The notes beneath the pieces are model-generated. The model was not told where the DNA came from. It saw only the letters and a program-made list of their open reading frames with translations, and did not search any database. From positions 1 through 64,000 of IMG/VR virus record IMGVR_UViG_3300050821_003452: a DNA stretch of 64,000 bases; one strand, written 5' to 3'. Positions within the stretch are counted from its first letter, which is position 1, and the number at the start of each line of letters is the position of its first letter. This DNA comes from a virus. The position numbers and the translations under genes were made by a program. Positions 14,790-36,837 of this stretch are shown piece after piece.

Positions 14790-15246
14790 TAACTGGACAG
14801 CAGAAGAGAAGAGCATCTTGATCGAACACTGGGATAGTAACAAATCGGCCCAAGAAATCTCCAATATGCTTGGCACCAAGAGCAGAAATGCGGTGATCGG
14901 GAAGGCTCACAGATTAGGCCTCGCCTCACGCAAGAAAGCTTCGCCGCCCCGGAACCCAACCAAGGTTCCGAAAGTTGCAAACGATAACACCGAACCCAAG
15001 ATGGCAAAGATCAGGACCATAAAGGCCAAGCCGCCTACCAAGCTCTCGGCAGAGGTTCCTCTTCCGACTGGTCAGCACCCTATTACCATCATGGAGCTAA
15101 CTTCCAACACTTGCCGGGCTATCGTGGGTCGCGGCTCCAATGGACTTGCTACATATTGTGGTGAGGAAGTGTTCCCCGGCAAGGTCTGGTGTCCCGGCCA
15201 TTGCGTGCTGTACTTCAATCATGAACCACGGCGGCGCTCGGCATGA
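14779..15246 (+). CDS. gcrA: GcrA cell-cycle regulator homolog
   Basis: WT.E....L..HW...SA.EI...LG..SRNAVIGKAHRLGL N-domain and IMELT..TCR..VG...YCG......WCPGH C-domain. Confidence 0.9.
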   Translation: MAIDNWTAEEKSILIEHWDSNKSAQEISNMLGTKSRNAVIGKAHRLGLASRKKASPPRNPTKVPKVANDNTEPKMAKIRTIKAKPPTKLSAEVPLPTGQHPITIMELTSNTCRAIVGRGSNGLATYCGEEVFPGKVWCPGHCVLYFNHEPRRRSA

Positions 15247-15413
15247 GTACCGGGTCGGTCTACGCTAAATATGAGCTTCCGGAACAAAATCCGGAAGCTC
15301 ACTTGATGTACCGGCCTGAGTTTAGTTTGGAGGAAATGGAAGCCGCTAGGCAGCTAATTAGTGCCTTGCGCCAAAGCCCACCTTGCGGACCTTCCCGCCC
15401 TGACCCTGATTGA
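15243..15413 (+). CDS. 56-aa peptide carrying the shared tag (PEFSLEEMEAARQLI)
   Basis: ATGA overlap with the gcrA stop; translated by hand, absent from ORF track. Confidence 0.55.
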   Translation: MSTGSVYAKYELPEQNPEAHLMYRPEFSLEEMEAARQLISALRQSPPCGPSRPDPD

Positions 15414-16482
15414 ATAGGTCGGCAATAGAGTAAGTGCCCTTCTCGATAGGAATAGGCACGCCGGCAACCTTGGCCGCCGCCTGAGCTTCATTCAGGTCCA
15501 ACTCGCGGGTCCTGATCACGCCATAACAGCGCCCCGGCCTTAAAAGCGCTTCGTCCACCCGGCCAAAGTCAGCGGACCCCAGATTGGTAGTAAACACCAG
15601 TTTCTTGTTGGGAAGCTTGATAAGCCCGTCACTGACAGAGAGAAATCTGGCCATCATCTTATTGCCGTCATCCCGCTCGGAAAGGATGGTATCGGCGTCT
15701 TCGATGACCATGATCTCGGAGTTATCGTTAAAGAGAAATCCCTGAAAAACGGCGTCTTTCTCCATGAGTTTTTCGTCATAGATCACATGGGCAGAAAGCT
15801 TATGATCTATGATCAGGTGCCTGAGAAGCGTGGTTTTCCCGGTGCCGGGAGGCCCCGCAAGAAGCAGGACGCTGGCATCGGAAGCCAGATATTTATCCAT
15901 GAAATCATAGGGGTCGCCAAGGTCCGGGTAATATTCCGGATGCAGTTTGGTCTTGTTTGGTGGAAAGTAAATATCGCGGGTTTCGGTGCCGTGGCGCCCC
16001 TCATACCACCATTTGACCTTGGCCATTTTCTCGTTGGCAAAGGCGCTCTCGATCTCCTGCTTGATATCCAGTGCCACGTCTTTCTCGGCATAGATATATG
16101 CCGTTATATCATGAACATCTTCGTTTTCTTCGCCATGGCGAGAGTTATTGTTGAGGATAACCAAGCGATCCGTACCCTCAATAACCACCAAGTTTGAATT
16201 AGGCATGGACAGGCGAGATTTATCTTCGCCCGCAATAACATGAACCTGATGATAGATATCGAGGGCCGAATTGGCTTTGCGCACCACGATCTTTGTGGTT
16301 TCTGAATAGATATTAAGCAAGGTGCGCGCGATGAATTGCTGGATGATCTGGTTCTCCAGCGACGTATCAACAACCGTCGCATGCTCCATCTGAAACGAAT
16401 TGGTCTTGTCCATTTTCTTGCCTCTTGCCTTCAGGCTCTTTGCTGCCCTAAAATCATCCCAGTGAGTATTCCAGTGTGACAT
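15358..16482 (-). CDS. AAA+ ATPase
   Basis: Walker A GPPGTGKT, Walker B VIEDAD, FTTN, DEALLRPGR; true start possibly 16413. Confidence 0.9.
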   Translation of the reverse strand: MSHWNTHWDDFRAAKSLKARGKKMDKTNSFQMEHATVVDTSLENQIIQQFIARTLLNIYSETTKIVVRKANSALDIYHQVHVIAGEDKSRLSMPNSNLVVIEGTDRLVILNNNSRHGEENEDVHDITAYIYAEKDVALDIKQEIESAFANEKMAKVKWWYEGRHGTETRDIYFPPNKTKLHPEYYPDLGDPYDFMDKYLASDASVLLLAGPPGTGKTTLLRHLIIDHKLSAHVIYDEKLMEKDAVFQGFLFNDNSEIMVIEDADTILSERDDGNKMMARFLSVSDGLIKLPNKKLVFTTNLGSADFGRVDEALLRPGRCYGVIRTRELDLNEAQAAAKVAGVPIPIEKGTYSIADLFNQGQGGKVRKVGFGARH

Positions 16483-16515
16483 TTCTAGACTGGATCAAAT
16501 CTTTAGGGCTAATTT

Positions 16516-16875
16516 ATGACTAAGATCACGATGCATCTTCCATTTCCTCCAAGCACAAATTCATTGTGGCGTTCAAGCAGAGGGCGCGTTCATCTTAGCG
16601 CTAAGTATAAAGCATGGTTGAATACAGCCGGCTACGAATGGATCGCACAAAAGAAACATCAGCCTAATGGAATATCCGGGCATTTCAAAGCCATTTTAAT
16701 ACTTAACGAAGATATGCGCAGTAGAAAAGATTGCGATAACCACGCGAAAGCGCCTCTTGACCTTGCCAAACAGCACGGATTGATCGTGGATGACAAACTT
16801 TGCGATGCAATTCTTATCAAGTGGGGCTCGCCAAAGAAAGCTCCATTAGGGGCCAGACTTGTTCTTAAGGGTTGA
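16516..16875 (+). CDS. rusA: RusA-like Holliday junction resolvase
   Basis: LPFPPSTN.LW, DCDNHAK..LD....G.IVDD motifs. Confidence 0.85.
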   Translation: MTKITMHLPFPPSTNSLWRSSRGRVHLSAKYKAWLNTAGYEWIAQKKHQPNGISGHFKAILILNEDMRSRKDCDNHAKAPLDLAKQHGLIVDDKLCDAILIKWGSPKKAPLGARLVLKG

Positions 16876-17148
16876 ATAGATTTCTTGCTCGAATAGAATA
16901 TTCTCCAATTCTGTTTTTGGCTCTTTATCTTTCGGTAAATATTCAAAAGTGTCCGAAAGATAATCCCCGTCCATTTGCCCGGCCCGAAATTCATTATCAT
17001 CCCATTTAACATGAACCAGCCAATCCTTCATATACTCCGACCAATAAGTTTGTTTTGTAATTATGGCTATGGCTCCAGCCCTTGCCGCCATCCCGCCCCG
17101 ATCTACAGGCATGAAAACCCTATCACCCATTTCAAATATTTTCTTCAT
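16846..17148 (-). CDS. SH3/KOW-like small protein with degenerate C-terminal tag
   Basis: FEMGDRV start; ELENILFEQEIY near the end. Confidence 0.6.
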   Translation of the reverse strand: MKKIFEMGDRVFMPVDRGGMAARAGAIAIITKQTYWSEYMKDWLVHVKWDDNEFRAGQMDGDYLSDTFEYLPKDKEPKTELENILFEQEIYSTLKNKSGP

Positions 17149-17480
17149 GACATACCCTCCAGTATTTCCATAGCCTGCATGGTTTCGTTATATTCTTCAT
17201 TTCCTACTTCTATCGGGGACGGTTCTTTGAATAATTCCACAAAATCTTGCCAATACTCGTTTTTATACTTTTTATCGGCCCATTCTACAGATGTAGCCCA
17301 ATAAGTTGGCGGCTCATTCGGTACGGCGAACGGACCTACACTATGGCCCTTGCGACTAACATTTTCAGGGCGCCATTTTCGATTGGCGGTAACAATTCCA
17401 ATGCCTTCGCGCTGGAGTTTATTTTGGGTATTATATACCCTGACCCTATCACCGATCTTGAATTTTGGTTCGTCGCTCAT
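17145..17480 (-). CDS. SH3/KOW-like small protein with C-terminal tag
   Basis: FKIGDRVRV start; EEYNETMQAMEILEGMS end. Confidence 0.7.
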   Translation of the reverse strand: MSDEPKFKIGDRVRVYNTQNKLQREGIGIVTANRKWRPENVSRKGHSVGPFAVPNEPPTYWATSVEWADKKYKNEYWQDFVELFKEPSPIEVGNEEYNETMQAMEILEGMS

Positions 17481-18899: not shown

Positions 18900-18904
18900 T
18901 AATC

Positions 18905-19180
18905 CTATCCCTCGATAAGCTGCCTTCCTAGTTCGATTTCCTCTAATGAGAAATCTGGCTCGACCATAGGATAGTCATTTTTTTCTGGAATAAGATCGTC
19001 TTCTGCATACCAAATTCTATCGATTGGAGGGGACATACCATCCCGGTTAACCAAAAAAATATCAGTACTGTCTTTTCTCTCTATTTTTTCAGTAATCTTG
19101 CCATGAATTTCATAATGCGGGGCATTGGAGTTATCTTCATATTCCCGCGTAACAATGACAACACGATCTCCCACCTTCAT
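18905..19180 (-). CDS. SH3/KOW-like small protein with C-terminal tag
   Basis: MKVGDRVVIV start; PDFSLEEIELGRQLIEG end. Confidence 0.7.
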   Translation of the reverse strand: MKVGDRVVIVTREYEDNSNAPHYEIHGKITEKIERKDSTDIFLVNRDGMSPPIDRIWYAEDDLIPEKNDYPMVEPDFSLEEIELGRQLIEG

Positions 19181-19554
19181 GTCATGTCCTCCATGATTTT
19201 CTGGGCTTGTTCTATTTCCGACAACTCAAAAGTATTGCCGGCGTTATTAGTATTTGTAACCATCTTTTTACGCTTGCGATAAAACGTGGATTTATGCATC
19301 CATGTTTCTGGTGTAAGGTCCCTTCCTGCGCCACTCATTTCAAGGCAATACAATGGGCCTTTCTGATAAAGGTCAAAAGGGTCAGAAGTGTCAAATCTGC
19401 CATATTTGTTTCGGCGTAACATCGCATAGTGCCCAAGATAATGGTCATTATGAAACTCTGGCACCCAGATATCATTGGCCTTATACAATGCCTTTATGAG
19501 CTTTATATCTCTCGGCAAAAATGGCCGGACGTGGTATTCTACTTTGTCAGACAC
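19177..19554 (-). CDS. Hypothetical protein with C-terminal tag
   Basis: FELSEIEQAQKIMEDMT end. Confidence 0.65.
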   Translation of the reverse strand: MSDKVEYHVRPFLPRDIKLIKALYKANDIWVPEFHNDHYLGHYAMLRRNKYGRFDTSDPFDLYQKGPLYCLEMSGAGRDLTPETWMHKSTFYRKRKKMVTNTNNAGNTFELSEIEQAQKIMEDMT

Positions 19555-19858
19555 CTTGCATTTCCTTTATGTAGAATTCTGCTAATTCCATATCGTCCAA
19601 GTCGAAGTCCGTTTCCATGACTTGCTGATAAGCCAGAGGCTCAACATGGGCCTCGCGAAACCAGAATTTGGGATACTCTCTTCTTCCTACGATTACCGGA
19701 TTGTCGAATTCAACCTGAAAATCATATCCAGCCGACGCTATAGCCCTGACAGTGCCGAATGGCTCTTTAGTGAAGAGCATAGGCAGATTACCATCGCCAT
19801 TCGCAGTAGGAACGGTTCTGATCAGAATTCTAACCCTATCACCTTCTTTGTAGGTCAT
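19547..19858 (-). CDS. SH3/KOW-like small protein with C-terminal tag
   Basis: YKEGDRVRI start; TDFDLDDMELAEFYIKEM end. Confidence 0.7.
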   Translation of the reverse strand: MTYKEGDRVRILIRTVPTANGDGNLPMLFTKEPFGTVRAIASAGYDFQVEFDNPVIVGRREYPKFWFREAHVEPLAYQQVMETDFDLDDMELAEFYIKEMQGV

Positions 19859-20193
19859 GACAAATCCTCCAGTATCTTGCTGCCGGCCTCGATTTCATCT
19901 AGTGTAAAATCCGGCTGGAGCATTTCAAAGCGTTCTGGTTCAATGTGTTCGAACCCGTACCACCATTCTGATCGGTTCCCATCGTGCTTAAAAGAAATCA
20001 GCAAATCATAGTCAGTGGCATGAGTTTGGTTGGCGCTTAAATCCTCAATAACCCCTATTTGTCCCTTGATGGGACTGTAGCGTTTATCATGTGGGCCTCT
20101 TCTGTAAGGTTCCCTTCGGCTATCTCTTAATGGGACATAATCGATAAGAAACCTAATCCTGTCGCCTATTGCGAATTTTTGTTTGGGTCCCAT
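19855..20193 (-). CDS. SH3/KOW-like small protein with C-terminal tag
   Basis: FAIGDRIRF start; PDFTLDEIEAGSKILEDLS end. Confidence 0.7.
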   Translation of the reverse strand: MGPKQKFAIGDRIRFLIDYVPLRDSRREPYRRGPHDKRYSPIKGQIGVIEDLSANQTHATDYDLLISFKHDGNRSEWWYGFEHIEPERFEMLQPDFTLDEIEAGSKILEDLS

Positions 20194-20411
20194 GCCGGCA
20201 CCTTTGGTTTATCATTCATAAGCATTTCCTGAAGGCGCTCGTTTTCGAGTTGAGTATCCTCAAGGGTTTCTTCTAGGCTTGCCAGACATTGCAGAACAGC
20301 GTTAGTTAGTTGCGCCATCGCACTACTCGCATGAAGCGGGTTGGCAAACTGGTCCGGAGTTTTCGGAAGCTTGTCGATTAGCTCTCTAAATTTTTCAGTG
20401 TAGACGCCCAT
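20166..20411 (-). CDS. Hypothetical coiled-coil protein
   Basis: GGAG RBS; within operon. Confidence 0.55.
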   Translation of the reverse strand: MGVYTEKFRELIDKLPKTPDQFANPLHASSAMAQLTNAVLQCLASLEETLEDTQLENERLQEMLMNDKPKVPAWDPNKNSQ

Positions 20412-20634
20412 ATTTCTTCTCCTGCGATGACAGTCTCATATTCTTCTGCGCCGTTATTCATGACTTGCTTATTATATGGAAGCGCATCAAGGCCCGCTCT
20501 CAGGATTTTACCAATGTTGGCATTTGCCGTATTGCCGCCGTTTTATCGAAATACTCCGACACCCATATCTGGTCGTCTCCAGAAAGGTTCTGGTATTCGT
20601 TATGGGCCCGATCCCAAAGCTGCCTATCAACCAT
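20378..20634 (-). pseudogene. Frameshifted tag-bearing gene
   Basis: MVDRQLW...YFDK in one frame continues as NGGNTAN...NGAEEYETVIAGEEIW in the -1 frame; one extra A in the A4 run (20541-20544) restores an 85-aa ORF. Confidence 0.55.
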
Positions 20635-20872
20635 TCATGATCTCCTGCGCTGTTATGGCCTCTTCGTACTCTTGGGCCGCGACTGTCATAGGGGTGGGGA
20701 CCAAATCCGGCATACGCCAATAAATGGCTTCCAATAGTGCCTGCCCATCATAGAGCGGGACCCTGTTTATTTTGTAGCGTCCGATGATAGTAGCGCGTTC
20801 AGCGGTCCCCTCAGGGGCCACTTTGTTCAAAAGGTTGACTATTTCAACCCACTTTGCGGTATGTATGGCCAT
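20627..20872 (-). CDS. Hypothetical protein with C-terminal tag
   Basis: AAQEYEEAITAQEIMNG end; GAGG RBS. Confidence 0.7.
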   Translation of the reverse strand: MAIHTAKWVEIVNLLNKVAPEGTAERATIIGRYKINRVPLYDGQALLEAIYWRMPDLVPTPMTVAAQEYEEAITAQEIMNG

Positions 20873-20919: not shown

Positions 20920-21387
20920 ATGATGGTTACTAATTCTGTGCTGCGCGATCCCAAGAGAGAACTCTTTGCGCAAAAAGTTTCTGCCGGCGTTCCCAAGGAA
21001 CAGGCTTACCAAGAAGCGGGCTACCTTGGAAAATCAAAAATGGGCAGTTCTCGTCTTATGAATATCCCTGCCGTGCGAGCCCGCATCAACGAAATCATGG
21101 ATGCTGGCGCCAAGCGTTCTGAGCTAACCAGAAAGGGTATTCTGGAGAGAATATTCGAAGACTGGGAGACCGCACGTAAACTCGGCCAGATACCTGCTGC
21201 GCTCAAAGCCGGGGAATTATTGGGTCGCGAGATGTTCCGGATGTTTACCGAACGAAAAGAAATTGGTGGCCCGGGGGATTTCGATCAGAAGTCTGAGGAA
21301 GAGCTTCGTCAGATCGTTACAGAGGAACTAAAACAACTGGGCTGGGAAGACCTATCAACCCAACCTCCCTCAGATACCGTCAATTAG
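20920..21387 (+). CDS. terS: Terminase small subunit
   Basis: KRELFAQ..G...QAY.EAGY.....SRL...P.VRARI.E HTH; ALKAGELLG...MFTERKEI. Confidence 0.8.
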   Translation: MMVTNSVLRDPKRELFAQKVSAGVPKEQAYQEAGYLGKSKMGSSRLMNIPAVRARINEIMDAGAKRSELTRKGILERIFEDWETARKLGQIPAALKAGELLGREMFRMFTERKEIGGPGDFDQKSEEELRQIVTEELKQLGWEDLSTQPPSDTVN

Positions 21388-21651
21388 CTCTTGCGCTTCG
21401 TGGATTTCATCTAGCGTGAAATCAGGTTCAGGTGGCTTTAGTTTGATTATCTCCAGGTCTTCCTCTGGATAAATAAATCCATCATGATGGGGGTGTATCT
21501 CTTCCACATGCGGCCAAATAACGCGACGCCAAGTTCTTTTACTGTTGTTTGGCTTGGTGTCTAATGCCGTTATTCTTCCAGTTTCTCCCTTGGATTGGTG
21601 CAACCAGTGACTTAGATTACCTTTGATTTTTACCAGATCACCTATTTTCAT
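21370..21651 (-). CDS. SH3/KOW-like small protein with C-terminal tag
   Basis: MKIGDLVKI start after GGAGG RBS; PDFTLDEIHEAQELIDGI end. Confidence 0.7.
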   Translation of the reverse strand: MKIGDLVKIKGNLSHWLHQSKGETGRITALDTKPNNSKRTWRRVIWPHVEEIHPHHDGFIYPEEDLEIIKLKPPEPDFTLDEIHEAQELIDGI

Positions 21652-21665
21652 CTTTATCCCTCCAT

Positions 21666-21712
21666 AATTGCTTAACACAGTCCCCCGTAAGGGACTGGCC
21701 TTAAGCAATTCA
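21666..21712 (-). promoter_or_regulatory. Intergenic structured RNA element, copy 1 (lacks alternative hairpin)
   Basis: Transcript: AATTGCTTAA GGC CAGTCCCT-TACG-GGGGACTG TG TTAAGCAATT. Confidence 0.65.
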
Positions 21713-22299: not shown

Positions 22300-22857
22300 A
22301 TGTCTAAGACGTGCTCACGATGTTCTCAAACGAAACTACTGACGGAGTTTTATGCCCGTGGATCATGGTGCAGGACTTGCAACAAGACTATATGCAAAGC
22401 GTACTATGAAGCTCGGAAGCGACGGAATGGGAAGCTGGTAAGGCCGCGCAATCCGATCATTAATGGTCTCAAAAATTGTCGCCAGTGTAATACTGTAAAG
22501 CTCATATCAGAATTTTGGAAACACGGTAAATTTCCCGGCGCGTACTGTAAGATTTGCGCTAGTGAGGCAGGTAAGGCGTGGTATAAAGAGAATAAGCGTA
22601 AGGATAAGGATTGGAAACTGCGTCGCACTTACGGCCTCACCATTGATCAGTACGAACAAATATTGGCTCGACAGAATTATAAATGTGCTATTTGCAAAGT
22701 TTCTAATCCGAAAGGTCGGAATGGCTTCAACGTAGATCATTGTCACGAAACTAGTAAAATTCGCGGTTTACTTTGTTCCAATTGTAACATTGGAATAGGA
22801 AATCTTCAACACGACCCGGATATTCTCCGGGCCGCATTGAAGTATCTCGAAGTCTAG
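22300..22857 (+). CDS. Endonuclease VII-like HNH homing endonuclease
   Basis: CxxC zinc motifs; YGLT..QY..IL..Q..KCAIC...VDHCH.T.KIRGLLC..CN..IG; inserted against the operon direction. Confidence 0.9.
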   Translation: MSKTCSRCSQTKLLTEFYARGSWCRTCNKTICKAYYEARKRRNGKLVRPRNPIINGLKNCRQCNTVKLISEFWKHGKFPGAYCKICASEAGKAWYKENKRKDKDWKLRRTYGLTIDQYEQILARQNYKCAICKVSNPKGRNGFNVDHCHETSKIRGLLCSNCNIGIGNLQHDPDILRAALKYLEV

Positions 22858-24020
22858 TAATCAACCGTTCGCCCAAAGGGCGCGCGGAGCTTGTTGTGGG
22901 CAGCGAAGTTCACAAATACGACGGGAAAGGGCGGTTCCTTGCCAAAGGAACCCGTCTCTAAATCTGTGAAAAAGATCATGCCAACTGATCCGGCATATTC
23001 TTCGTTCACAAGCTTCATGAGACTTTCAAAGTGCGTCCCTCCGCCCCCGCGAGGCTTCCATTCAATGACACCCTGCGAGTTGGTTACGACCGAAATTGAC
23101 TTCGGTTCAGTGTCCACGGCAATAAGCGTGGCTTGGTTGATAATATTCTCGTCCAAAACCGCTGACGCCTCTGTCTTCATGGCTTTCAACATATCATCAC
23201 TCACAGAGCCAGATACGTCAAATACCAACAGAAGATTGTAGATATTGTCATCGGCATAACCCGGCATAATCGGGTCCTGCCTACGACGATTTACGCGGGT
23301 CCAAGAACGACTTTCGCGTGATTTGGCATCGCGCGACATATCCCGGATAATATCCCGCCAATTCAGTTTCTCGACTGGCAATAATTCTTCTACCAATCGC
23401 TGAATGTTGGCCGGCATATTGCCGGCCTTCTTGGCCTTGTCAGAGGCGTTTGCTACCGCGCGTGACCAATCCTTGGCTGCCTGATCGGCCTCTTCCTGAT
23501 CTTCCGGAGAGGGGTCTTCCATGCCGCCCGGTTGGTTAGCACCGTTTTCACCATCGCTTTGGCCTTTGCCGCCGCCTTTGCCACCACCACCTTTCTTGCT
23601 TTCCTGTTCTTCCAGAAGCTCATAAATCTCTTCCGCAGCTTTATTAGGATAAAGCCCATCGCCTTTCATTAACTCGGGATGTTGTGGAAAATACTGATGA
23701 ACCAATGGCCTTACTGAAAAGTCAGTGGCTTGGTTCCACTTGTCCTTGTCGCGGGACTTCCTGCGGGGAACATGCGCCAATGCAAGGTGCATGATCACTT
23801 CAAGAATATCGCCCTCAATGTACTGATCATTTTCCTTGACGTATTCCGGATTGAAAAAGATGTTGATGCCGTTAGTCCAGATTGCGGGCCTACGGTCACT
23901 TTCTTCAAGCCGGGCATTGAACAGAAGGGACGCAAAGAAAGGATTGCGCCGCGCGATACGTTCGCGTGCCACCAATACCCGTCGCATTGCATCCGTATAT
24001 TTGGTATTCCAGTTCCACAT
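22854..24020 (-). CDS. VWA-domain protein with peptidase-like N-domain (DUF2201-like)
   Basis: PFFASLL..TNG..IFFNP N-domain; DVSGS MIDAS, GGGGT.F, FFTD. Confidence 0.85.
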   Translation of the reverse strand: MWNWNTKYTDAMRRVLVARERIARRNPFFASLLFNARLEESDRRPAIWTNGINIFFNPEYVKENDQYIEGDILEVIMHLALAHVPRRKSRDKDKWNQATDFSVRPLVHQYFPQHPELMKGDGLYPNKAAEEIYELLEEQESKKGGGGKGGGKGQSDGENGANQPGGMEDPSPEDQEEADQAAKDWSRAVANASDKAKKAGNMPANIQRLVEELLPVEKLNWRDIIRDMSRDAKSRESRSWTRVNRRRQDPIMPGYADDNIYNLLLVFDVSGSVSDDMLKAMKTEASAVLDENIINQATLIAVDTEPKSISVVTNSQGVIEWKPRGGGGTHFESLMKLVNEEYAGSVGMIFFTDLETGSFGKEPPFPVVFVNFAAHNKLRAPFGRTVDY

Positions 24021-24095
24021 GATTTGTTCCCTCTTTATGAAGCATGTCGCTTCGTGCTGCCCTAGATTGCTCTAGGGCAGTGTCGAAACGTCTTA
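24021..24095 (-). promoter_or_regulatory. Intergenic structured RNA element, copy 3
   Basis: TAA GACGTTTCG ACA CTGCCCTAGA-GCAA-TCTAGGGCAG CA CGAAGCGAC AT GCTTC then AGAGGGAA. Confidence 0.75.
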
Positions 24096-25115
24096 CTTCT
24101 TATCAACCGCTTCCTGTACCAAGCTCGCCAAGTCTTTGTTGGACTTGAGACTGGTATCGCGCGCCATGGCTTCGTGTGCGGCCATGGAACGGATATCCGG
24201 AGTAAGCCGCGAAAGATACTCGGCAAACTTGGAGGCGTTCTTGAGGTCGATGTTCTTGGCCACGGCAGACGCCACAACATACTGATAGTGTGGATCAGTC
24301 GGGACCTTGGCCTTGCTCGGATTAGCCAGAATATCGCCCATCTTGGGAAGTCCCGCCGCAAGGTTATTGATGAACGTCATAAACTGACGCGAAAAGCCGT
24401 CACCAAGAATAGCCTGAGCATTGTTCTCAAGAACAGCCTTGGAGCTATCCATTGAGAGGTTTTTCAGGACCTTGTTGAAGCTTTCCAAAGACCTTGGCGT
24501 CGGAAATGCCGGATCAGTCTGCGATACCTTGTGAATATCGTCAGGCCGAAGTGTCAAATACGCGACAAGGCGCGGGTCCCAACCCCAGATTTTCATCTTT
24601 TCGATCAAACCCGGAGCGTCGGGTTCCACACTGACATGCGCCATGCGGTTCTCAAGAGGCTTCAGCATCTTGTTATCGCCGCCGCCGTCAGTCCGGGTAT
24701 TGCTTGCCAGCAAAACGCGGTTTTTGTTGGGCAACGGAAAGCCGCCCAAACCACGATCCAGCACAAGGCTATAAGCCATCTGCTGAAGCTGTACACTCGC
24801 ATGTCCGAACTCGTCATAGAACATCACGTGCATATTGCCGTCTTCCTGCGGAATGAATGCAGGCCGCGTCCAATAAGTCGCACGATTGTCCTTGTCGATA
24901 ATCGGCATGCCAGTGCCATCCACAATATCCTTTGTGGAAAGCCGGGTATCATGCAAGATCGAAGTGCCGTATTCTTTGACTATGGCTGGCAAGACTTCGT
25001 TCTTGATGATAGAAGACTTGCCCACACCAGTCGGGCCATAGATCATTACCGGAACATCGGCAAAGACCAAAGGCAAGACGGTATCTGCAAGCTTGGTTAT
25101 TTTCACCTTAAGCAT
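24093..25115 (-). CDS. MoxR/dynein-related AAA+ ATPase
   Basis: GPTGVGKS, FYDE, ASN...D, PLENR, FPTPRS motifs. Confidence 0.9.
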   Translation of the reverse strand: MLKVKITKLADTVLPLVFADVPVMIYGPTGVGKSSIIKNEVLPAIVKEYGTSILHDTRLSTKDIVDGTGMPIIDKDNRATYWTRPAFIPQEDGNMHVMFYDEFGHASVQLQQMAYSLVLDRGLGGFPLPNKNRVLLASNTRTDGGGDNKMLKPLENRMAHVSVEPDAPGLIEKMKIWGWDPRLVAYLTLRPDDIHKVSQTDPAFPTPRSLESFNKVLKNLSMDSSKAVLENNAQAILGDGFSRQFMTFINNLAAGLPKMGDILANPSKAKVPTDPHYQYVVASAVAKNIDLKNASKFAEYLSRLTPDIRSMAAHEAMARDTSLKSNKDLASLVQEAVDKK

Positions 25116-25199
25116 GTTTGATTTTCCCTCTCGTCTGAGCAACATTGCTCACCAATGCGCTATATGGCTAGTACAGCGCATGGCGTGAACAGTGATTTA
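25116..25199 (-). promoter_or_regulatory. Intergenic structured RNA element, copy 4
   Basis: CACTGTTCAC GCC ATGCGCTGTA-loop-TATAGCGCAT TG GTGAGCAATG TTGCTCA then GAGAGGGAA. Confidence 0.7.
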
Positions 25200-25427
25200 C
25201 GCATACCTGCTATGCGTTATTGAGGTATCAAGACTGTATCCATGAGACCACACTTTTAGCGTTGTGCCGTCCGTAAAGGTAAGGATAATTGTCTCGTTAT
25301 TCCCGTTGGTATTGTTGGCAGTGTCCATTGCCATGTATTCGGCATGAGAAATGGTCTTGCCAACAAGCTCAAAGATATTCACTGGCATCTTCCACCATCG
25401 AAGTGATTTCCTTGTCCCGCAAATCAA
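25197..25427 (-). CDS. Hypothetical protein
   Basis: ELVGKTI...IILTFTDGT motif; likely start at MPVN. Confidence 0.55.
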   Translation of the reverse strand: MICGTRKSLRWWKMPVNIFELVGKTISHAEYMAMDTANNTNGNNETIILTFTDGTTLKVWSHGYSLDTSITHSRYA

Positions 25428-26325: not shown

Positions 26326-26395
26326 TTGATCCCTCTCTCTATTAGAGCTTAATGCTCTATGCTGCACTGTTGCCAGTGCAGAGGTAGAACATTCA
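26326..26395 (-). promoter_or_regulatory. Intergenic structured RNA element, copy 5
   Basis: TGA ATGTTCTA CCT CTGCACTG-GCAA-CAGTGCAG CA TAGAGCATT AA GCTCTA then AGAGAGGGA. Confidence 0.75.
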
Positions 26396-31034: not shown

Positions 31035-31328
31035 ATGTCCAGTAAAGCGCAGAAATATGATTTTCGGGTTGGGGACTTGGTGGTCTGTGCTGACATTTCG
31101 GGCGACACCAGACAACTGACGCTTGGCGTGACTTATAAAGTAGAGAAAATACTCAGGAGCCATATTCAGATTATTGGCGACCGTGGATATCCTATTAACA
31201 GATTTGCTAGGCAATTTAAGCCGGCGCCGGTTCCCGAAGTTATTACCTCCGAAGTTATTACCTCCGATGACCAAGAATACCATGAAATCCTGAAGGCTCA
31301 AGAGATTTATGAGGATGCGACCAAATGA
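31035..31328 (+). CDS. SH3-like small protein with C-terminal tag
   Basis: FRVGDLVVC..LTLGVTYKV; DQEYHEILKAQEIYED end. Confidence 0.75.
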   Translation: MSSKAQKYDFRVGDLVVCADISGDTRQLTLGVTYKVEKILRSHIQIIGDRGYPINRFARQFKPAPVPEVITSEVITSDDQEYHEILKAQEIYEDATK

Positions 31329-31588
31329 AAACAGGAAATACCGTCTGGTGCATCAATGGCGGGCCGACGCCGGTTGGCGAAAGCTCGTATCTGACTGTCG
31401 GTAAAGAATACGAAGTCGAGCTGATTACCGCCAATCATGTCCATGTTACTGGAGATCATGGATGGGTTGTGGTGCGCCGAAGGGACAGGTTCGCGTTGAT
31501 GGCCCCCACGTCTCCGATGGAGAGTATGGCAGAAGAATACCATGACGCCCTCCAAGGCCAAGAAATATACGAGAGCCTGATCGAATGA
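31325..31588 (+). CDS. SH3-like small protein with C-terminal tag
   Basis: MKTGNTVWCI..YLTVGKEYEV; AEEYHDALQGQEIYES end. Confidence 0.75.
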   Translation: MKTGNTVWCINGGPTPVGESSYLTVGKEYEVELITANHVHVTGDHGWVVVRRRDRFALMAPTSPMESMAEEYHDALQGQEIYESLIE

Positions 31589-32061
31589 AATTCATGGTTG
31601 GCGATAAAGTCAGGGTGATCATTCCCCAATGGCACGGGAACCGTGAGGGTGAAGTCAATCATGCTTGCTCAATCCATGCTATCTACATAATTGGGTGTCG
31701 CGCCGTGGTAAATTTTCTTGGTCTGTTCAAAACCAAGCCTTCCATTGCCAAGCCGCTTCAGGTGCCGGGAATATCCCCGCCGCCTCAATTTTCCATAGGC
31801 GATATAGTTATGCTCAGGGATATAAACCCCTACAAGGGCTCGCTATCCAGCAAGAACACATATTCAGTTCTCAGGTTTATACCTCCGGACCATCTTTGCG
31901 TTCAATCCGATACCGGAGATAATTCTTGGTATTCCGCCAGATATTTCACCTTGGTACGGCAATCGCCCCTTACGGCAGCCGACGAATACGAAGAGATCAT
32001 GAAAATTCAGGACAGCCTTGATTTAGCCGAATTTCAAGGTCATAAAGACCACAGAGACTAG
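31585..32061 (+). CDS. SH3-like protein with C-terminal tag
   Basis: FMVGDKV and FSIGDIV modules; AADEYEEIMKIQDSL. Confidence 0.65.
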   Translation: MKFMVGDKVRVIIPQWHGNREGEVNHACSIHAIYIIGCRAVVNFLGLFKTKPSIAKPLQVPGISPPPQFSIGDIVMLRDINPYKGSLSSKNTYSVLRFIPPDHLCVQSDTGDNSWYSARYFTLVRQSPLTAADEYEEIMKIQDSLDLAEFQGHKDHRD

Positions 32062-32267: not shown

Positions 32268-32549
32268 ATGTCTGAACCCAAACCAGAGAACGCAAAGAAC
32301 CCGGCGAGCTTCGCTCCCGGGGACTTTGTGCATTTCGAAGACTATCGGAACAAAGAAGATGTTTACGGCTATGTTACTCACGTTCAAGGCTCAGATGTAT
32401 GGGTAGATGTAGATGCCGAGAATAAATGGATCGTCAGTGCATCAAGTCTGACATTTGTAATGCCCGCCAAAACACCGATGACGGACGCCGCAGAGGAATA
32501 CGAAGAAACAATTCTGGCACAAGACATGATGGAAATCCTCCATGGATGA
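32268..32549 (+). CDS. SH3-like small protein with C-terminal tag
   Basis: FAPGDFVHF; AAEEYEETILAQDMMEIL end. Confidence 0.7.
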   Translation: MSEPKPENAKNPASFAPGDFVHFEDYRNKEDVYGYVTHVQGSDVWVDVDAENKWIVSASSLTFVMPAKTPMTDAAEEYEETILAQDMMEILHG

Positions 32550-32838
32550 AGACGATAAAATCCGCCATGCCAAATCAGTTAGGCGTATTTATAATGAAGA
32601 CCAGCAACAAAAAGATGAATTTGGGGCTTTGCTAAAGATCGTGGATGATAGATTTGGAGAGGAGTGGCGCTCCAAGATCATCGATCTTGTCTGGCTGGAT
32701 GCAACAGACGAGATGTCTTATCGCGATCTTTATAATCTTGCCATCCATAAAGCCAAGCTAAAGCTGAATATAATTGTGCTTGATGCCACCGAGTATGAAG
32801 AAACCATGCGCTTCTCGGATATTATGGAGACGCTATGA
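32542..32838 (+). CDS. Hypothetical protein with C-terminal tag
   Basis: DATEYEETMRFSDIMETL end. Confidence 0.65.
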   Translation: MDEDDKIRHAKSVRRIYNEDQQQKDEFGALLKIVDDRFGEEWRSKIIDLVWLDATDEMSYRDLYNLAIHKAKLKLNIIVLDATEYEETMRFSDIMETL

Positions 32839-33383
32839 TGATTTGGTATTTTTTATACTTTATCTGGGCATTTACTGGCGTATCCATAATAGGTGCGCTT
32901 GTGGTCATTCGTTATAATATCTGCATGACAAGAATGATGAATGTAAAAAGCGACTTGTGGAGCGGGTATGATTGTAATTTTTGTGCACTGGGCGAAAACT
33001 GTCATCATCTCAAGACAGAACTAAGACATATCGAATGGGATCAAGTCCACAAGTGTATGTTCTGGGGCAGGAACTATCGTCGGCATCTTGAGCCACTGAC
33101 CCAGTGTGCATTGAAAGGTATTTATCCAGAAGAAAATGATTGTCCTATATTCTGGAATTCCTACAAGAATATTTACCCTCTTCTGCAAGAAAAGCAGCGA
33201 CGGCAGGTTCTTGCCAATCTTACAGGCTGGAACCAACCACAGGTGATGTTTACGCATGAACTTGAATGTCTTGGTTTCAATGTCTGGGTTTTTGATAGTA
33301 AAAATAACTCTACTAATGCCGGCGCAGAAGAATATCTTGAGGCCATCAAGGCGCAGGAAATTGCAGAGCAAATGGGACTATGA
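32835..33383 (+). CDS. Membrane-anchored protein with C-terminal tag
   Basis: N-terminal TM; GAEEYLEAIKAQEIAEQM end. Confidence 0.65.
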   Translation: MMIWYFLYFIWAFTGVSIIGALVVIRYNICMTRMMNVKSDLWSGYDCNFCALGENCHHLKTELRHIEWDQVHKCMFWGRNYRRHLEPLTQCALKGIYPEENDCPIFWNSYKNIYPLLQEKQRRQVLANLTGWNQPQVMFTHELECLGFNVWVFDSKNNSTNAGAEEYLEAIKAQEIAEQMGL

Positions 33384-33886
33384 AACGCATCCTGATATGC
33401 GGCAGCAGGGAATTTTCCAATTGGGATATATTCTGGAATGCTCTACATGAGATCGCTTGGTGTTATTTTGCTAGAGGGCCGCTGGATAATCAGGGTAATT
33501 TTACCTATGCGGTGACTGTCATCTGCGGCGGCGCAAAGGGTGCTGATACGCTTGCGATGGAATGGGCGGCAATCGAGAACGTCAATCTGGAAATCTATCT
33601 GGCTGAGTGGGACAAATTCGGCAAGTCTGCCGGCTATCGCCGCAACAAGAGAATGCTGGATGAAGGCAAGCCTGATATTGTAATTGCTTTCCCCGGTGGC
33701 ATCGGGACAAAGATGATGGTGGATATCGCCAGACTGGCCAACGTGAAGATAATTAAGGTAAATGTCACTCCTGCCGGATCGCACTATGTAATAAGCGAGG
33801 ACACCGCAGGCAGCCTAGACCCCGGTGCCGAAGAGTACGAGCAAATTATGGAAGCGATAGATTTAGTGGACAAAATGTCTCCATAA
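33380..33886 (+). CDS. SLOG/YspA-like (DUF2493-type) protein with appended C-terminal tag
   Basis: RILICGSR, ICGGAKGAD..A.EWA, W...GKSAG.RRN.RML, VIAFPGG.GT..M; then GAEEYEQIMEAIDLV. Confidence 0.85.
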   Translation: MKRILICGSREFSNWDIFWNALHEIAWCYFARGPLDNQGNFTYAVTVICGGAKGADTLAMEWAAIENVNLEIYLAEWDKFGKSAGYRRNKRMLDEGKPDIVIAFPGGIGTKMMVDIARLANVKIIKVNVTPAGSHYVISEDTAGSLDPGAEEYEQIMEAIDLVDKMSP

Positions 33887-34391: not shown

Positions 34392-34509
34392 ATGGCAGGA
34401 AGAGTTAGCGCGAAGATGGCTCTTTTTGCCGACTGAAGAGGTTCTAACCTTTTCAGGGCGGGGAGGGAAGTTACGCTCCCTCCCCGCTAACGTCTTGAGA
34501 GAGGGAAAT

Positions 34510-34770: not shown

Positions 34771-35045
34771 TCACTGAACAGGAAGCCCAGAAGCGTTGGT
34801 GCCCTATGGGTCGCCAGCCGACCATGGTGCCTACAGGCGCCAACGCAAATATGTGGACGCATGTAGCCGCCAATCGTCAACCCAATGGCGACGTGCCATC
34901 CTGTCTGGGCTCTCTATGCATGGCTTGGCGATGGCATGACGAAAAAACCTATCGTGAAATTGATGTAACCACTAACGAAGTTCTGGACGAACAGCCAAGG
35001 CGAGGGTTTTGCGGGTTATTTGGGAAGCCTGAGTATGCAGAGTAA
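34764..35045 (+). CDS. Cys-rich small protein, paralog 2
   Basis: TEQEA..RWCP...CLGSLCMAWRW...RGFCGLFGKP. Confidence 0.7.
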   Translation: MLVTEQEAQKRWCPMGRQPTMVPTGANANMWTHVAANRQPNGDVPSCLGSLCMAWRWHDEKTYREIDVTTNEVLDEQPRRGFCGLFGKPEYAE

Positions 35046-35529
35046 TTCGCGCTGCACAAAATGCGGCAAGACCAAAACGGCCAATGAATTTGGCGTAAGG
35101 TATCGTATTTTGGTATCTGGTAAAAAATCTGGTCCATTTTTGGAAAGCTGGTGCTTGCCGTGCAAGCGCATCTATAATGGAAGAAGCGGCCCACGAAGAA
35201 GCGTCCGCAAACAAAAATTAATAGCCATGCATGGCGGCAAGTGTGTCAAGTGCCATGGCATTTTTCACCATGCGGCCTATGATTTTCACCATAGGGACCC
35301 CTCTCAAAAACACTTCCATCTTACCGCTCTTTACGATAAGAAGTGGGATCGGTTGGTTGCGGAAGCCGCCAAATGTGATCTAATATGCTCTAACTGCCAT
35401 CGCGTAATGCATTACGAAGAGGGTATTATTGTTTTTCCAAGCAAGGCCACAACGATGCTGGCCTCACGCAGGAAGGCTCGTCTGAACTATCAACAAGATC
35501 AGGCAAATTACCGCAATAATAGGGAATAA
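35035..35529 (+). CDS. HNH endonuclease
   Basis: GGKCVKC....YDFHHRDP.QK...EAAKCDLICSNCHR..H. Confidence 0.85.
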   Translation: MQSNSRCTKCGKTKTANEFGVRYRILVSGKKSGPFLESWCLPCKRIYNGRSGPRRSVRKQKLIAMHGGKCVKCHGIFHHAAYDFHHRDPSQKHFHLTALYDKKWDRLVAEAAKCDLICSNCHRVMHYEEGIIVFPSKATTMLASRRKARLNYQQDQANYRNNRE

Positions 35530-35534
35530 CAGCC

Positions 35535-35975
35535 ATGGGCGTTCTAGAAGAGCTTCACGACGAACACAAAGCCCGCCAAGAACGCATCGCCAAGGCGGCA
35601 TTCAAGACAGTCGCCCTCCCACCTAAACCACTAACCATCACAAGCGAAGACCTGCCATTTGCCAGTTTTGATATTATTCTCAATGAGATATGTGCATATT
35701 TCGGAACTAGGGTAGAAGATATCCTTTCCTCCCGCCGCCAAGCCGATCTTGCCAAAAAACGCGCCATGCTGGCCTACATGACTTATCTGCTGACGCCTTT
35801 ATCTAACCCTCAAATTGCCATAAAAATGAACCGAGACCCCACCAGCATAGGTTACGCTATCAACAGGGTCAGAAATAACCTTAGCATGCACACCGAGACC
35901 ATCGATATACTGGAAGCCAAGATCGTCCCGCTGCTGGAAGAAAAAACCCAGCGGGTCAAGAAAAGAGATAGATAG
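35535..35975 (+). CDS. DnaA domain-IV-like HTH protein
   Basis: I..EIC.YFG....DILS.RR...LA..R.M..Y....LT.LS.PQI...MNRDPTSI.YA. Confidence 0.8.
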   Translation: MGVLEELHDEHKARQERIAKAAFKTVALPPKPLTITSEDLPFASFDIILNEICAYFGTRVEDILSSRRQADLAKKRAMLAYMTYLLTPLSNPQIAIKMNRDPTSIGYAINRVRNNLSMHTETIDILEAKIVPLLEEKTQRVKKRDR

Positions 35976-36376
35976 TGAGTACCTTCATTGCATACTTGTT
36001 GCTTGGTGTGGCTGCCGGCATCATCGCGAGTGTGATCTGGAAGCTTCTCAGCCATGAGCGCAAATTCAATAACTATGTGGCAGAGCTTCGCGGCATGACC
36101 GAGGCCATGAAGCAATCCAATCGCGAAGTCAGTGAGCTTCACTTCAGGGACATTACTGGAAGGCCGCGCATTGTGCGGATCGTGGTGGATTATGGCCTGA
36201 CCGATGAAGTGCTTTCTGACGGCTTGATAGATTTTGTCCGCTCTACCAAAGTGGCCAACAACACCGACGAGATGATATTCTCTCCCCGCGCAGTCCGAGA
36301 ACTTCGCGCCAAAGGCCTTGAGCCTGATGATGTTGTCAGGCAAATGCTGATTGCATCAGGGATTATGCCGCGATGA
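35975..36376 (+). CDS. Membrane-anchored hypothetical protein
   Basis: N-terminal TM. Confidence 0.6.
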   Translation: MSTFIAYLLLGVAAGIIASVIWKLLSHERKFNNYVAELRGMTEAMKQSNREVSELHFRDITGRPRIVRIVVDYGLTDEVLSDGLIDFVRSTKVANNTDEMIFSPRAVRELRAKGLEPDDVVRQMLIASGIMPR

Positions 36377-36837
36377 TCTCACGCTTGCTGGATTATATGG
36401 AGAAAATAGCCAACCCAAAAAAGGAAACTCCAGTGGCAAATATAAACTCATATTATGGCATTGCCGGCACTGCGCCACCGACAGTGCCGGCTGGTGGCAG
36501 CGGTACCTATTGTTCAACCGGCAGTGCTGGCATCAGTGCTGGCATTGCTTACCATCAGCATGCCCAAGTTAACAAGGTTAATGGCATGGGCCTTCCAATG
36601 TTCCCAAGCGGACAGGTGGTGACTATTTCCTTTCGCGATGCTTATGGTGTTATGTTCTCGCTGGCGGTTGATAGCACTGTTGTTACGTTGATGAACCATA
36701 TTGATGGTATCCATGGCATGGCATCAGCGCAGTTTACGCCTGTGACTAAATTCAAGATGAATGATGCAGATTTCTCCATCGATGAACTGGAGAAAGCCGA
36801 AAAGGTTATGGAAGAGTTGGGATATGAGCGAGCCTAG
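36373..36837 (+). CDS. Hypothetical protein with C-terminal tag
   Basis: ADFSIDELEKAEKVMEELG end. Confidence 0.65.
   Translation: MISRLLDYMEKIANPKKETPVANINSYYGIAGTAPPTVPAGGSGTYCSTGSAGISAGIAYHQHAQVNKVNGMGLPMFPSGQVVTISFRDAYGVMFSLAVDSTVVTLMNHIDGIHGMASAQFTPVTKFKMNDADFSIDELEKAEKVMEELGYERA

Follow-up and report, generated by a model that had tools for sequence, protein, structure and literature searches.

A common C-terminal helix on small early proteins

The window analyzed here is a stretch of 64,000 nucleotides (positions 1 to 64,000 of IMG/VR record IMGVR_UViG_3300050821_003452) from the 76,589-bp genome of an uncultured soil phage, termed G000. As summarized in Table 1, 17 ORFs and one frameshifted copy between 15.2 and 36.8 kb share an acidic, amphipathic C-terminal helix of about 19 residues (the tag), and the small early proteins bearing it represent approximately one-eighth of the genes of this phage. 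All 17 had been listed in a sequence-only reading of the window, and each was recovered where that reading had placed it, with the motif at its C terminus. The tagged ORFs lie in two early arrays, the rightward one opened by ORF 31035 (ORFs are named by their first coordinate). ORF 15243, whose tag ends 16 aa upstream of the stop codon, is coupled to a GcrA-like gene on its upstream side; ORF 17145 gave a weak Pfam match to Phage_ProQ_C_like, and the start of ORF 21370 is probably at 21651. The copy at 20378, described earlier as frameshifted, does carry a tag match, but it is split into two ORF pieces, possibly as a pseudogene.

Table 1. Tagged ORFs of the two arrays and genes for candidate readers of the tag (window coordinates)
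Feature	Coordinates	Strand	Tag	Evidence or remark
56-aa ORF, tag nearly without body	15243..15413	+	15303-15368	Held-out HMM score, 12.0 bits
Classical Cdc48/Afg2-like AAA ATPase, ~200-aa N-domain; weaker reader candidate	15358..16482	-		Pfam, among others
100-aa SH3-like ORF, weak tag	16846..17148	-	16867-16932	Leave-one-out, 0.1 bits (fails)
111-aa SH3-like ORF, EEY-type tag	17145..17480	-	17151-17216	HMM, leave-one-out
91-aa SH3-like ORF, DFxL-type tag	18905..19180	-	18908-18970	HMM, leave-one-out, AF2, Foldseek
125-aa ORF, non-SH3 body	19177..19554	-	19183-19248	HMM, leave-one-out
103-aa SH3-like ORF, divergent tag	19547..19858	-	19559-19624	16.7 bits; fails leave-one-out
112-aa SH3-like ORF, DFxL-type tag	19855..20193	-	19861-19926	HMM, leave-one-out
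Frameshifted/decayed member, two ORF pieces	20378..20634	-		Second piece ends with weak EEY-type tag, 8.1 bits
81-aa helical-looking ORF, EEY-type tag	20627..20872	-	20630-20692	HMM, leave-one-out
SH3-like ORF, DFxL-type tag	21370..21708	-	21373-21438	HMM, leave-one-out, alignment
DUF2201_N zincin-like + VWA fusion; candidate reader	22854..24020	-		PF13203, 1.3e-29; PF09967, 5.3e-16
MoxR/CobS-like AAA+ ATPase; candidate reader complex	24093..25145	-		Weak AAA_5/AAA_7 Pfam matches
DUF3150-like protein, first module gene; candidate reader complex	25369..26367	-		ESM Atlas; in 5/5 phages
97-aa SH3-like ORF	31035..31328	+	31254-31319	HMM, leave-one-out; phrog_4927
87-aa SH3-like ORF, paralog of 31035	31325..31588	+	31514-31579	BLASTP 1e-7 to 31035 body
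158-aa ORF, two SH3-like units and one tag	31585..32061	+	31966-32028	Tag 12 aa from stop
93-aa SH3-like ORF	32268..32549	+	32475-32540	HMM, leave-one-out
98-aa helical-looking ORF	32542..32838	+	32770-32835	HMM, leave-one-out
182-aa ORF, Cys-rich body behind a hydrophobic N-terminal anchor	32835..33383	+	33309-33374	HMM, leave-one-out
168-aa YspA-type SLOG protein, 20-aa linker, then tag	33380..33886	+	33812-33877	Pfam PF10686, 2e-13
154-aa ORF, Gly/Ala-rich N terminus, beta-rich domain, DFxL-type tag	36373..36837	+	36754-36819	HMM, leave-one-out

Specificity and conservation of the tag

An HMM of the 19-residue tag core was run over the complete 76,589-bp genome in all six frames. The 17 members scored 16.7 to 27 bits, the best match after them was the frameshifted copy (20378-20542, 8.1 bits), and the remaining ORFs of the genome reached at most 5 bits, none of them near the members. 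When members were held out one at a time, 15 of 17 still scored above all true non-members; the two that failed, ORFs 16846 and 19547, were regarded as weak members. The distance from tag to stop codon was 0 to 16 residues in every match of the scan. When 1.84 billion proteins were searched with a profile, only 17 matches reached E ≤ 1e-3, of which 16 lay 0 to 11 residues from the C terminus, some on new bodies; the sequence-only reading had named such a nearly exclusive C-terminal position as support. Two natural proteins with two tags each were also found. That reading knew of no described family resembling the tag, and we likewise found neither a matching family nor a published description.

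The tag is an N-capped helix with one hydrophobic face and frequently with Gly as its last residue; the helix proper comprises only about 14 residues, the mean net charge of the tagged tails is −4.9, and the preceding linkers are long, rich in Pro and Thr, and variable in length. Its two variants, DFxL and EEY, could be aligned without gaps, as claimed earlier. Pairwise identity between tags was 0.47, 0.53, and 0.29 at codon positions 1, 2, and 3, respectively. The low third-position identity indicated that selection acts on the tag peptide and not on the DNA, bearing out the proposed protein-level conservation.

The last helix turn of the tag frequently coincides with the Shine-Dalgarno site of the following gene, and many tagged junctions are ATGA overlaps with GGAG lying within the codons for [LM]-E-[GD]. 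Glu was encoded by GAG in 16 of 24 cases at HMM position 18 versus 59 of 162 at other tag positions, and a Shine-Dalgarno-like tetramer occurred in the last codons of 24 of 47 tags. The downstream Shine-Dalgarno site partly shapes this last turn. It is extremely improbable, however, that the entire pattern is a by-product of Shine-Dalgarno or translational-coupling constraints, or of recombination linkers at the junctions, and has no function as a peptide, since these features account for no more than the last two or three residues, identity at third codon positions is close to random, and the full motif is also present in tags 12 to 16 residues from the stop codon, in tags with no coupled downstream gene, and in the internal tags of two-tag proteins.

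Bodies of the tagged proteins

Alignment placed about 10 of the tagged G000 bodies in one very divergent SH3-like family, with a conserved GDxV and a final strand preceding the tag, while the others include a SLOG enzyme and membrane-anchored, helical, and Gly-rich proteins. Thus, the earlier description of the bodies as unrelated is overstated for the SH3-like ones, and part of the tag pattern results from descent by duplication. ORF 18905 was predicted by AF2 to form a five-strand barrel (strands 6-9, 26-35, 38-42, 56-59, and 63-65; pLDDT 74.6), followed by a linker of lower confidence (66-78) and a helix (79-90); the five-strand barrel of about 60 residues was modeled for this one member and deduced from the alignment for about nine others. 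The Foldseek matches listed for ORF 18905 were SH3, KOW, Tudor, PsaE, and chromo-barrel proteins (probability 0.97 to 1.0, E of at least 0.02), and neither sequence nor fold comparison gave the SH3-like bodies a significant E-value, the best being 0.02. The likeness to such small barrels concerns the bodies alone, with the tag lying outside these domains.

A barrel with a capping helix is known in Sso7d, L24, and PWWP. The tag might accordingly be the closing helix of a single ancient small-protein family that has diverged extremely and undergone occasional fusions, with no common partner, as the shared GDxV and final strand of the SH3-like bodies and the barrel-plus-helix proteins among the Foldseek matches would suggest. 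We consider this unlikely: the tag is also found on SLOG, membrane-anchored, all-helical, and Gly-rich bodies, its linkers are long, Pro/Thr-rich, and variable, and its conservation exceeds that of the cores that it would stabilize.

The SLOG body is informative in this respect, as it carries the tag in G000 and lacks it in the related phage G002, whose homolog stops at the SLOG domain, without the linker. The helix is therefore an add-on and not integral to a SLOG fold that is complete without it, as the sequence-only reading required of a label.

Retention of the tag in related phages

Four related uncultured phages encode 35 further tagged ORFs, giving 52 in the five genomes (17, 13, 5, 12, and 5), with the tag C-terminal in 52 of 52. 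Core genes of the five phages are 40 to 87% identical; the bodies of the tagged ORFs form almost no BLAST clusters, and orthologous bodies are nearly absent between the phages, yet the helix is retained. In those tagged-protein families that could be aligned, the tag is the most conserved segment; it is the best-kept segment across six homologs of ORF 36373 and is retained in the homologs of ORF 32835 (G001:25313-25840 and P0017). These data supported the view that the tag is a modular, portable label under purifying selection.

Tagged bodies in the relatives are helical or membrane anchored, and some of the anchored proteins have scarcely any sequence besides an anchor, a charged helix, and the tag. 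Such proteins, together with the clear hydrophobic face of the helix, the existence of two-tag proteins, and a weak Pfam match of one tail to the p53 tetramerization motif, would fit amphipathic helices that bundle into homo- or hetero-oligomers, some tethered to the membrane through anchored members, with no separate reader. Self-association of this kind appears improbable, given that a mean tail charge of −4.9 disfavors bundling without a basic partner, that the helix is short, at about 14 residues, and that AF2 gave no confident arrangement of both helices for a two-tag protein (pTM 0.42).

Encapsulin cargo-loading peptides are C-terminal and follow a linker, on cargo that is encoded beside the shell gene and enclosed in the shell, and the T4 capsid-targeting sequence is N-terminal and cleaved by the prohead protease. 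The sequence-only reading had proposed a modular label that recruits cargo to one partner, such as the procapsid. While the portable, selected label stood, the capsid analogy fits poorly because the tagged genes are early, a distance of over 18 kb separates them from the head genes, and membrane anchors occur in several of their products. Loading of the proteins into the procapsid for coinjection is, in our estimate, very unlikely: the phage does encode a head protein of the common phage major-head type (55.7-56.6 kb), and the tag resembles encapsulin peptides in being a short portable label behind a flexible linker on unrelated cargo, but it is of another sequence type, 18 to 40 kb separate the two early arrays (15-37 kb) from the head genes, an N-terminal membrane anchor is present in several tagged proteins, and no structural-module gene carried a tag in the HMM genome scan. 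Its invariably C-terminal position also distinguishes it from the T4 sequence.

The acidic tails of SSB and of T7 gp2.5 and gp4 are disordered and require an extreme C-terminal aromatic residue. They serve in docking onto a partner, in one or several proteins, and like the tag they are acidic C-terminal peptides in which certain hydrophobic residues are essential; the tag differs in being a capped helix, 0 to 16 residues from the stop codon, with variable last residues.

Candidate partners of the tag

We lean, with slightly better than even confidence, toward the tag being a portable C-terminal docking helix that plugs variable small early proteins into one common partner. A flexible linker would tether the constant helix to many fast-evolving small early proteins; each variable body would do or bind something different, and the helix would connect all of them to the shared partner. 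We infer both that the tag binds and what it would bind: our preferred candidate is the phage's own module of a DUF3150-like protein, a MoxR ATPase, and a zincin-like/VWA protein, with a host hub protein close behind in likelihood.

The three-gene module is present in all five related phages, and in G000 both tagged arrays flank it. In a 76-kb genome the early genes all lie close together anyway, which weakens the argument from proximity between arrays and module. The DUF3150-like protein was missed by the PF11348 HMM but resembled DUF3150-bearing phage clusters of the ESM Atlas in features (0.96) and structure (TM 0.81 to 0.85). The MoxR ATPase is 59 to 74% identical in the four relatives. 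In the zincin-like/VWA protein, HExxH is degenerate in five of five orthologs (LEVIMH, LHTVLH, and others), and the DxSxS MIDAS of the VWA domain is intact in all five. The acidic helix could be captured by the MIDAS site or by the peptidase-like domain, which is catalytically degenerate, and the MoxR ATPase might then remodel or load the tagged client.

The phage also encodes a classical Cdc48/Afg2-like AAA ATPase, for which no homolog was found in the tagged relative G004. With two ATPases at hand and the tag at the C terminus of many unrelated proteins in early-gene arrays, the helix could be a degron or antidegron recognized by a protease or unfoldase of the host or phage, causing the early set to be cleared or protected together. 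This is quite unlikely, as the extreme C terminus is not conserved, unlike that of end-dependent degrons, the zincin-like domain has lost HExxH, no gene for a phage protease was noticed next to the arrays, and the classical AAA is missing from G004. In ESCRT-III proteins, MIM helices are recognized by the MIT domain of Vps4, an AAA ATPase. There, too, several different proteins have a short acidic amphipathic helix at their end, by which they dock onto an AAA+ enzyme at its substrate-recognition domain. The tag has no sequence similarity to MIM, no MIT domain was detected, and the classical AAA of the phage, with its N-domain of about 200 aa, is missing from one tagged relative.

In favor of the module as reader, published work describes vWA-MoxR pairs as capturing a peptide of the substrate (PMC7159879). 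Peptide-processing modules of three types, FxSxx-COOH, RxD, and acidic, are linked to bacterial vWA-MoxR ternary systems (Kaur et al. 2020, PMC7159879; Haft and Basu 2011, as cited therein). As in these systems, the phage has small, fast-diverging proteins in which the C-terminal peptide is the conserved part, encoded near a vWA protein, a zincin-like domain, and an ATPase of the MoxR type, and one of the described types is acidic. In contrast to the described systems, which belong to bacterial conflict islands, the zincin-like domain of the phage is fused to VWA and without HExxH, no cleavage is indicated, and 5 to 17 tagged proteins per genome carry the peptide on folded bodies, in place of a single precursor. 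Neither a radical-SAM/SPASM nor an AP-ATPase/TPR partner was found among the ORFs scanned, which were part of all ORFs.

The G000 module is a member of the phage MoxR/metallopeptidase-vWA pair of jumbo and N4-like phages, for which a role in virion assembly with peptidolytic processing has been proposed (Iyer et al. 2021, PMC7824862), as DUF2201_N and a VWA-like domain are joined in one protein next to the MoxR gene; no connection between the pair and arrays of tagged small proteins has been described. Homologs of the MoxR and zincin-like/VWA genes occur in 233 phage records, N4 included, and in N4-like phages the MoxR homolog adjoins the VWA gene. MoxR homologs were present in nine of nine module phages sampled, and eight of these nine VWA/MoxR phages, N4 among them, had no shared-tail cluster, indicating that the module functions without tags. 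The remaining one, a cultured N4-like Vibrio phage, had been chosen for the presence of the module, so the co-occurrence does not amount to an independent test; in this phage, searching de novo for shared tails revealed an acidic end-helix resembling the tag on at least 14 early ORFs, some of which immediately adjoin the VWA gene.

The C-terminal tag is conserved as a peptide

The phage is represented by a single contig of 76,589 bp, the window being its first 64 kb, and its DNA was present in one soil metagenome run. An alignable C-terminal element of about 19 residues (the tag) is present on 17 ORFs, which are spread over both strands from 15.2 to 36.8 kb. In the tag, a Pro or small-residue N-cap is followed by [DE]-[FY] or E-E-Y and by [LY]-[DE]-E-[IMA], and then come a small residue (Ala/Gly), Gln/Arg/Glu, an acidic residue or Lys, a hydrophobic pair, Glu, and in many copies Gly. 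A sequence-only reading had proposed that about 18 unrelated small proteins share one acidic docking or sorting label, and the motif proved to lie beyond chance. When a tag-core HMM was used to scan the genome's 2,217 stop-to-stop frames, the 17 members scored 16.7 to 27 bits, compared with 8.1 bits for the best frame beyond them, a frameshifted copy, and at most 5 bits for all remaining frames. In the leave-one-out analysis, 15 of the 17 held-out members scored above every true non-member, with ORFs 16846 and 19547 (named by start coordinate) being marginal, and in all matches the tag ended 0 to 16 residues from the stop codon. The ORF pieces around the frameshifted copy lie in two different frames, the second ending in a weak tag, and probably stem from a tagged gene that has frameshifted or is decaying, or else from an error in sequencing.

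Identity between tag copies was 0.47, 0.53, and 0.29 at codon positions 1, 2, and 3, respectively, and identical residues were encoded by the same codon in just 42% of cases. Thus, the conserved object is the peptide, as the sequence-only reading had argued from the differing codons. Its statement that no described family matches the tag also held, since a literature search on tags of phage early proteins found no description of them. Pfam and PHROGs searches with whole tagged proteins returned a SLOG domain and three weak matches only, and no family recurred when the 45 tails were all compared with Pfam. Judged from these sequences, the tag is a real feature with solid statistics, under selection as a protein element, and modular; a partner that would bind it is referred to below as the reader.

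The nucleotide sequence makes its own contribution. ATGA overlaps with the next start are frequent among tagged genes, and at these overlaps the [LM]-E-[GD] codons read NTG-GAG-GNN, a correctly spaced Shine-Dalgarno site. Glu was encoded by GAG in 16 of 24 cases at this position and in 59 of 162 at the remaining tag positions, and a Shine-Dalgarno-like tetramer was found in the last codons of 24 of 47 tags. This putative Shine-Dalgarno constraint accounts for a preference among the final two or three tag residues; it leaves the other fifteen unaccounted for, and it fails for tags 12 to 16 residues before the stop, for internal tags, and for tags without a coupled downstream gene. Given these exceptions and the codon statistics, it is very unlikely that the tag is purely a nucleotide by-product.

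Tags persist in relatives while bodies turn over

A MoxR-like ATPase search of IMG/VR revealed four uncultured relatives (G001 to G004; 59 to 74% identity), which were analyzed as whole records, and a locus search with the MoxR alignment as query returned only those four again. With the tag HMM, the four genomes yielded 13, 5, 12, and 5 tagged ORFs, also with C-terminal tags. While core genes are 40 to 87% identical across the five genomes, almost no cross-genome BLAST clusters were found among the tagged bodies (the remainder of each tagged protein), and in the three tagged families that could be aligned the tag was the best-kept segment. These results indicated that the helix stays constant and the bodies vary.

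When 1.84 billion representative proteins were searched with a profile built from 45 tags, only 17 matched at E<=1e-3; 16 of these are small proteins with the tag 0 to 11 residues from the C terminus, with new bodies and a two-tag membrane protein among them. So few matches indicated that this tag dialect is rare and clade specific. One match, the PPR-repeat protein P0027, was rejected as a tagged protein, because its six matches are weak, fall in repeats, and fit a generic 'YEEA...M...G' helix, so that they were taken as chance. Used as the query in a word-indexed search of proteins, the tail alignment brought back little more than proteins of the window itself, the one newcomer being P0014, an SH3+tag protein. 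A megablast comparison of 50,697 phage records with the 22-kb region gave no match, nor did the tag HMM match anything in four N4-like or Thermus phages, and none of 11 pattern matches from a related-locus search with the tail alignment was confirmed by tblastn. A presumed likeness of the tag to the N-terminal helix of alphaproteobacterial PopZ was dropped; PF10691, which covers another part of PopZ than that helix, had no match in the phage.

The tag is a portable add-on to different bodies

To call the bodies unrelated was too strong, because about ten of them in this phage share barrel features: their first strand carries GDxV, Gly occupies a central position, and a linker with Pro follows the last strand. 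The description stands for the remaining bodies, which are truly different. In an AF2 model of ORF 18905 (mean pLDDT, 74.6), a barrel of five strands is followed by a linker predicted with lower confidence (residues 66 to 78) and by a helix (residues 79 to 90), and Foldseek matched the model to SH3, KOW, Tudor, PsaE, and chromo-barrel chains with weak E-values. The non-barrel bodies include a YspA-type SLOG domain (PF10686), a hydrophobic N-terminal anchor with a Cys-rich body, two helical-looking proteins, and a Gly/Ala-rich plus beta-rich protein, and one ORF of 56 aa is a nearly bare tag. Bodies in G002 to G004 are mostly helical or single-anchor membrane proteins.

Descent of the tag as an inherited element of the fold is improbable in view of the non-barrel bodies and of a tagless SLOG homolog: the G002 protein ends with the SLOG domain, whereas the copy in this phage continues with a 20-residue linker and the tag. 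In addition, a G001 protein has the natural order barrel-tag-barrel-tag (two helices and two barrels in its AF2 model; pTM, 0.42), and the membrane-anchored P0020 carries two tags about 30 residues apart. The different bodies, the tagless SLOG homolog, and the two-tag protein indicated that the tag is a portable add-on rather than an integral part of the fold.

Other roles for such an add-on were weighed against the same proteins. Self-association of the tag helices is rather unlikely, as the mean tail charge is -4.9. Auto-inhibition of basic bodies by an acidic tail was rejected, since body net charge averages about 0 (range, -11 to +21). A degron or stability signal is disfavored by the variable distance to the stop and appears quite unlikely, and capsid targeting, with early gene locations and membrane anchors on tagged proteins against it, is very improbable.

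Tagged arrays flank a DUF3150-like/MoxR/VWA operon

As summarized in the table, a leftward three-gene operon (the module) sits between two tagged arrays. It encodes a 332-aa DUF3150-like protein (ESM Atlas features, 0.96; structure TM, 0.81 to 0.85; no Pfam HMM match), a MoxR/CobS-like AAA+ ATPase, and a protein that joins a zincin-like DUF2201_N domain to a VWA domain. The MIDAS motif of the latter, DxSxS, is intact in each of the five phages, and in each of them the zincin-like HExxH is degenerate. Homologs of VWA and MoxR were found in 233 phage records, N4-like and jumbo phages included; many of the VWA homologs in GenBank are labeled 'HNH endonuclease', which looks like a carried-over misannotation. 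A putative role in virion assembly has been published for the VWA/MoxR pair (PMC7824862), and the module is widespread in phages. For the second, classical AAA ATPase, no homolog was found in the tagged relative G004. Translational coupling links the GcrA-like gene to the bare-tag ORF of 56 aa, and the putative GcrA-like product suggests an alphaproteobacterial host.

Features of the phage genome and of compared records
Feature	Position	Strand	Remarks
GcrA-like regulator	14749-15246	+	Sequence reading and weak PHROG match; kept in 5/5 phages
Classical AAA ATPase	15358-16482		Cdc48/Afg2-like
Outlying tagged genes	15.2 kb and 36.4 kb		
Leftward tagged array	16.8-21.7 kb		
ORF pieces in two frames	20378-20634	-	Frameshifted copy, 20378-20542
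HNH/Endo VII-like endonuclease ORFs	22300-22857, 35020-35529	+	Sequence reading; one adjoins the VWA gene
DUF2201_N-VWA	22854-24020	-	Module
MoxR/CobS-like AAA+	24093-25145	-	Module
DUF3150-like	25369-26367	-	Module
Rightward tagged array	31.0-33.9 kb		
Nonulosonic acid operon	37077-45257	-	Window
tRNA-Ile(TAT) and tRNA-Ser(TGA)	45262-45336 and 46282-46369 (-)		
~165-aa proteins	54553-55050, L021:6557-7054	+	
Two-tag protein	L006:18698-19240	+	G001
Vibrio phage tagged ORFs, examples	70423-70632, 70176-70430, 73189-73455, 56936-57199, 54631-54924	-	MG592668.1 (L034-L037)
Cys-rich paralogs	3.7-8.1 kb		Salmonella phage As2 (PQ785583.1, L059)

A cultured Vibrio phage carries its own tag set

Shared tails were sought de novo with a detector that takes the best ungapped 12-mer (BLOSUM62 score >=30) within the last 28 residues, with shuffled tails and N termini as controls. 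The detector recovered the known tag clusters in this phage, G001, and G003, and it was then run on nine cultured phages picked for a VWA gene. The N4-like Vibrio phage 2.130.O._10N.222.46.C2 (Schitoviridae; MG592668.1) yielded 19 tail pairs that reached the threshold, versus 1 in shuffled tails, and an HMM built from this cluster matched at least 14 small early ORFs with the tag end 0 to 5 residues from the stop. Its dialect is an acidic helix, [YL]-[IL]-[KR]-[ML]-x-[EL]-[LI]-[LM]-E-[DE], and several of the tagged ORFs directly adjoin the VWA gene. The detector found no shared-tail cluster in the other eight module phages (N4, Horatius, phi 1, pYD6-A, As2, nACB1, RHph_X2_28B, and Thermus phiFa), so the module does not need tags; because the sample was chosen for having the module, the tag-module association is a lead and not a result. 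In As2, six small Cys-rich proteins of 60 to 81 aa are alike over their whole length, which marks them by sequence as a paralog array and not a tag.

A phyletic-profile search for the reader failed, since the proteins that this phage shares with the tagged Vibrio phage (only MoxR, VWA, and two 165-aa proteins) all occur in untagged phages. Besides MoxR and VWA, these two ~165-aa proteins are the only ones of this phage with tblastn homologs in several N4-like phages. Complex prediction of the VWA protein, the DUF3150-like protein, and the classical AAA N-domain with a 30-aa tag and alignment (MoxR not included, no controls) scored 0.00 without a verdict and is therefore evidence neither for nor against binding.

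A proposed docking handle and its candidate readers

On balance, we lean toward the tag being a common docking handle for a shared partner, because it is kept through body turnover, is present or absent on the same body, comes with a linker, and is strictly C-terminal. If it docks, the phage module and a host hub are about equally probable as the reader. With lower probability, the tag may be the address label of an exchangeable client/adaptor library for the DUF3150/MoxR/VWA machine, the Vibrio phage set then being a dialect of one general, undescribed phage system. The three proteins would form one ATP-driven, chaperone-like engine, which small, fast-evolving binder domains would aim at many host targets, all plugging into it through a lineage-specific C-terminal helix.

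The principle of a shared docking peptide is already known, and the phage tag is a new form of it. The tag is alike in logic to ESCRT-III MIM helices read by Vps4, to encapsulin cargo peptides, and to SSB or T7 acidic tails, but no MIT domain was detected in the phage, no shell gene neighbors the tagged genes, and the tag is not at the extreme C terminus. In gene content, the nearest counterparts are peptide-processing modules that accompany vWA-MoxR systems of bacteria, in which a variable small precursor has a conserved C-terminal peptide (PMC7159879); in the phage, however, the zincin motif is lost and cleavage is not indicated. On these grounds, the tag belongs to none of these systems.

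Genes sharing the one selected peptide make up about 13% of those in this phage and number 5 to 17 in each relative, which suggests a common interaction organizing a whole class of host-takeover or anti-defense proteins. Small early ORFans are the largest unexplained share of phage genomes. If the reader is MoxR/VWA/DUF3150, a module of hundreds of sequenced phages, the N4 family included, would gain its first function; if it is a host hub, the tag would point to a central vulnerability of the host. Whichever is true, the tag can serve directly as an affinity handle with which to find the partner, and the similar tag set of the cultured Vibrio phage opens the question to bench testing.

Other features of the genome

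The nonulosonic (pseudaminic-type) acid operon encodes a NeuB/PseI-like synthase, a DegT aminotransferase, and a fusion of a cytidylyltransferase with a class-III aminotransferase, and it is kept at 44 to 72% identity in all four relatives. Two tRNA genes lie between this sugar operon and the terminase gene.
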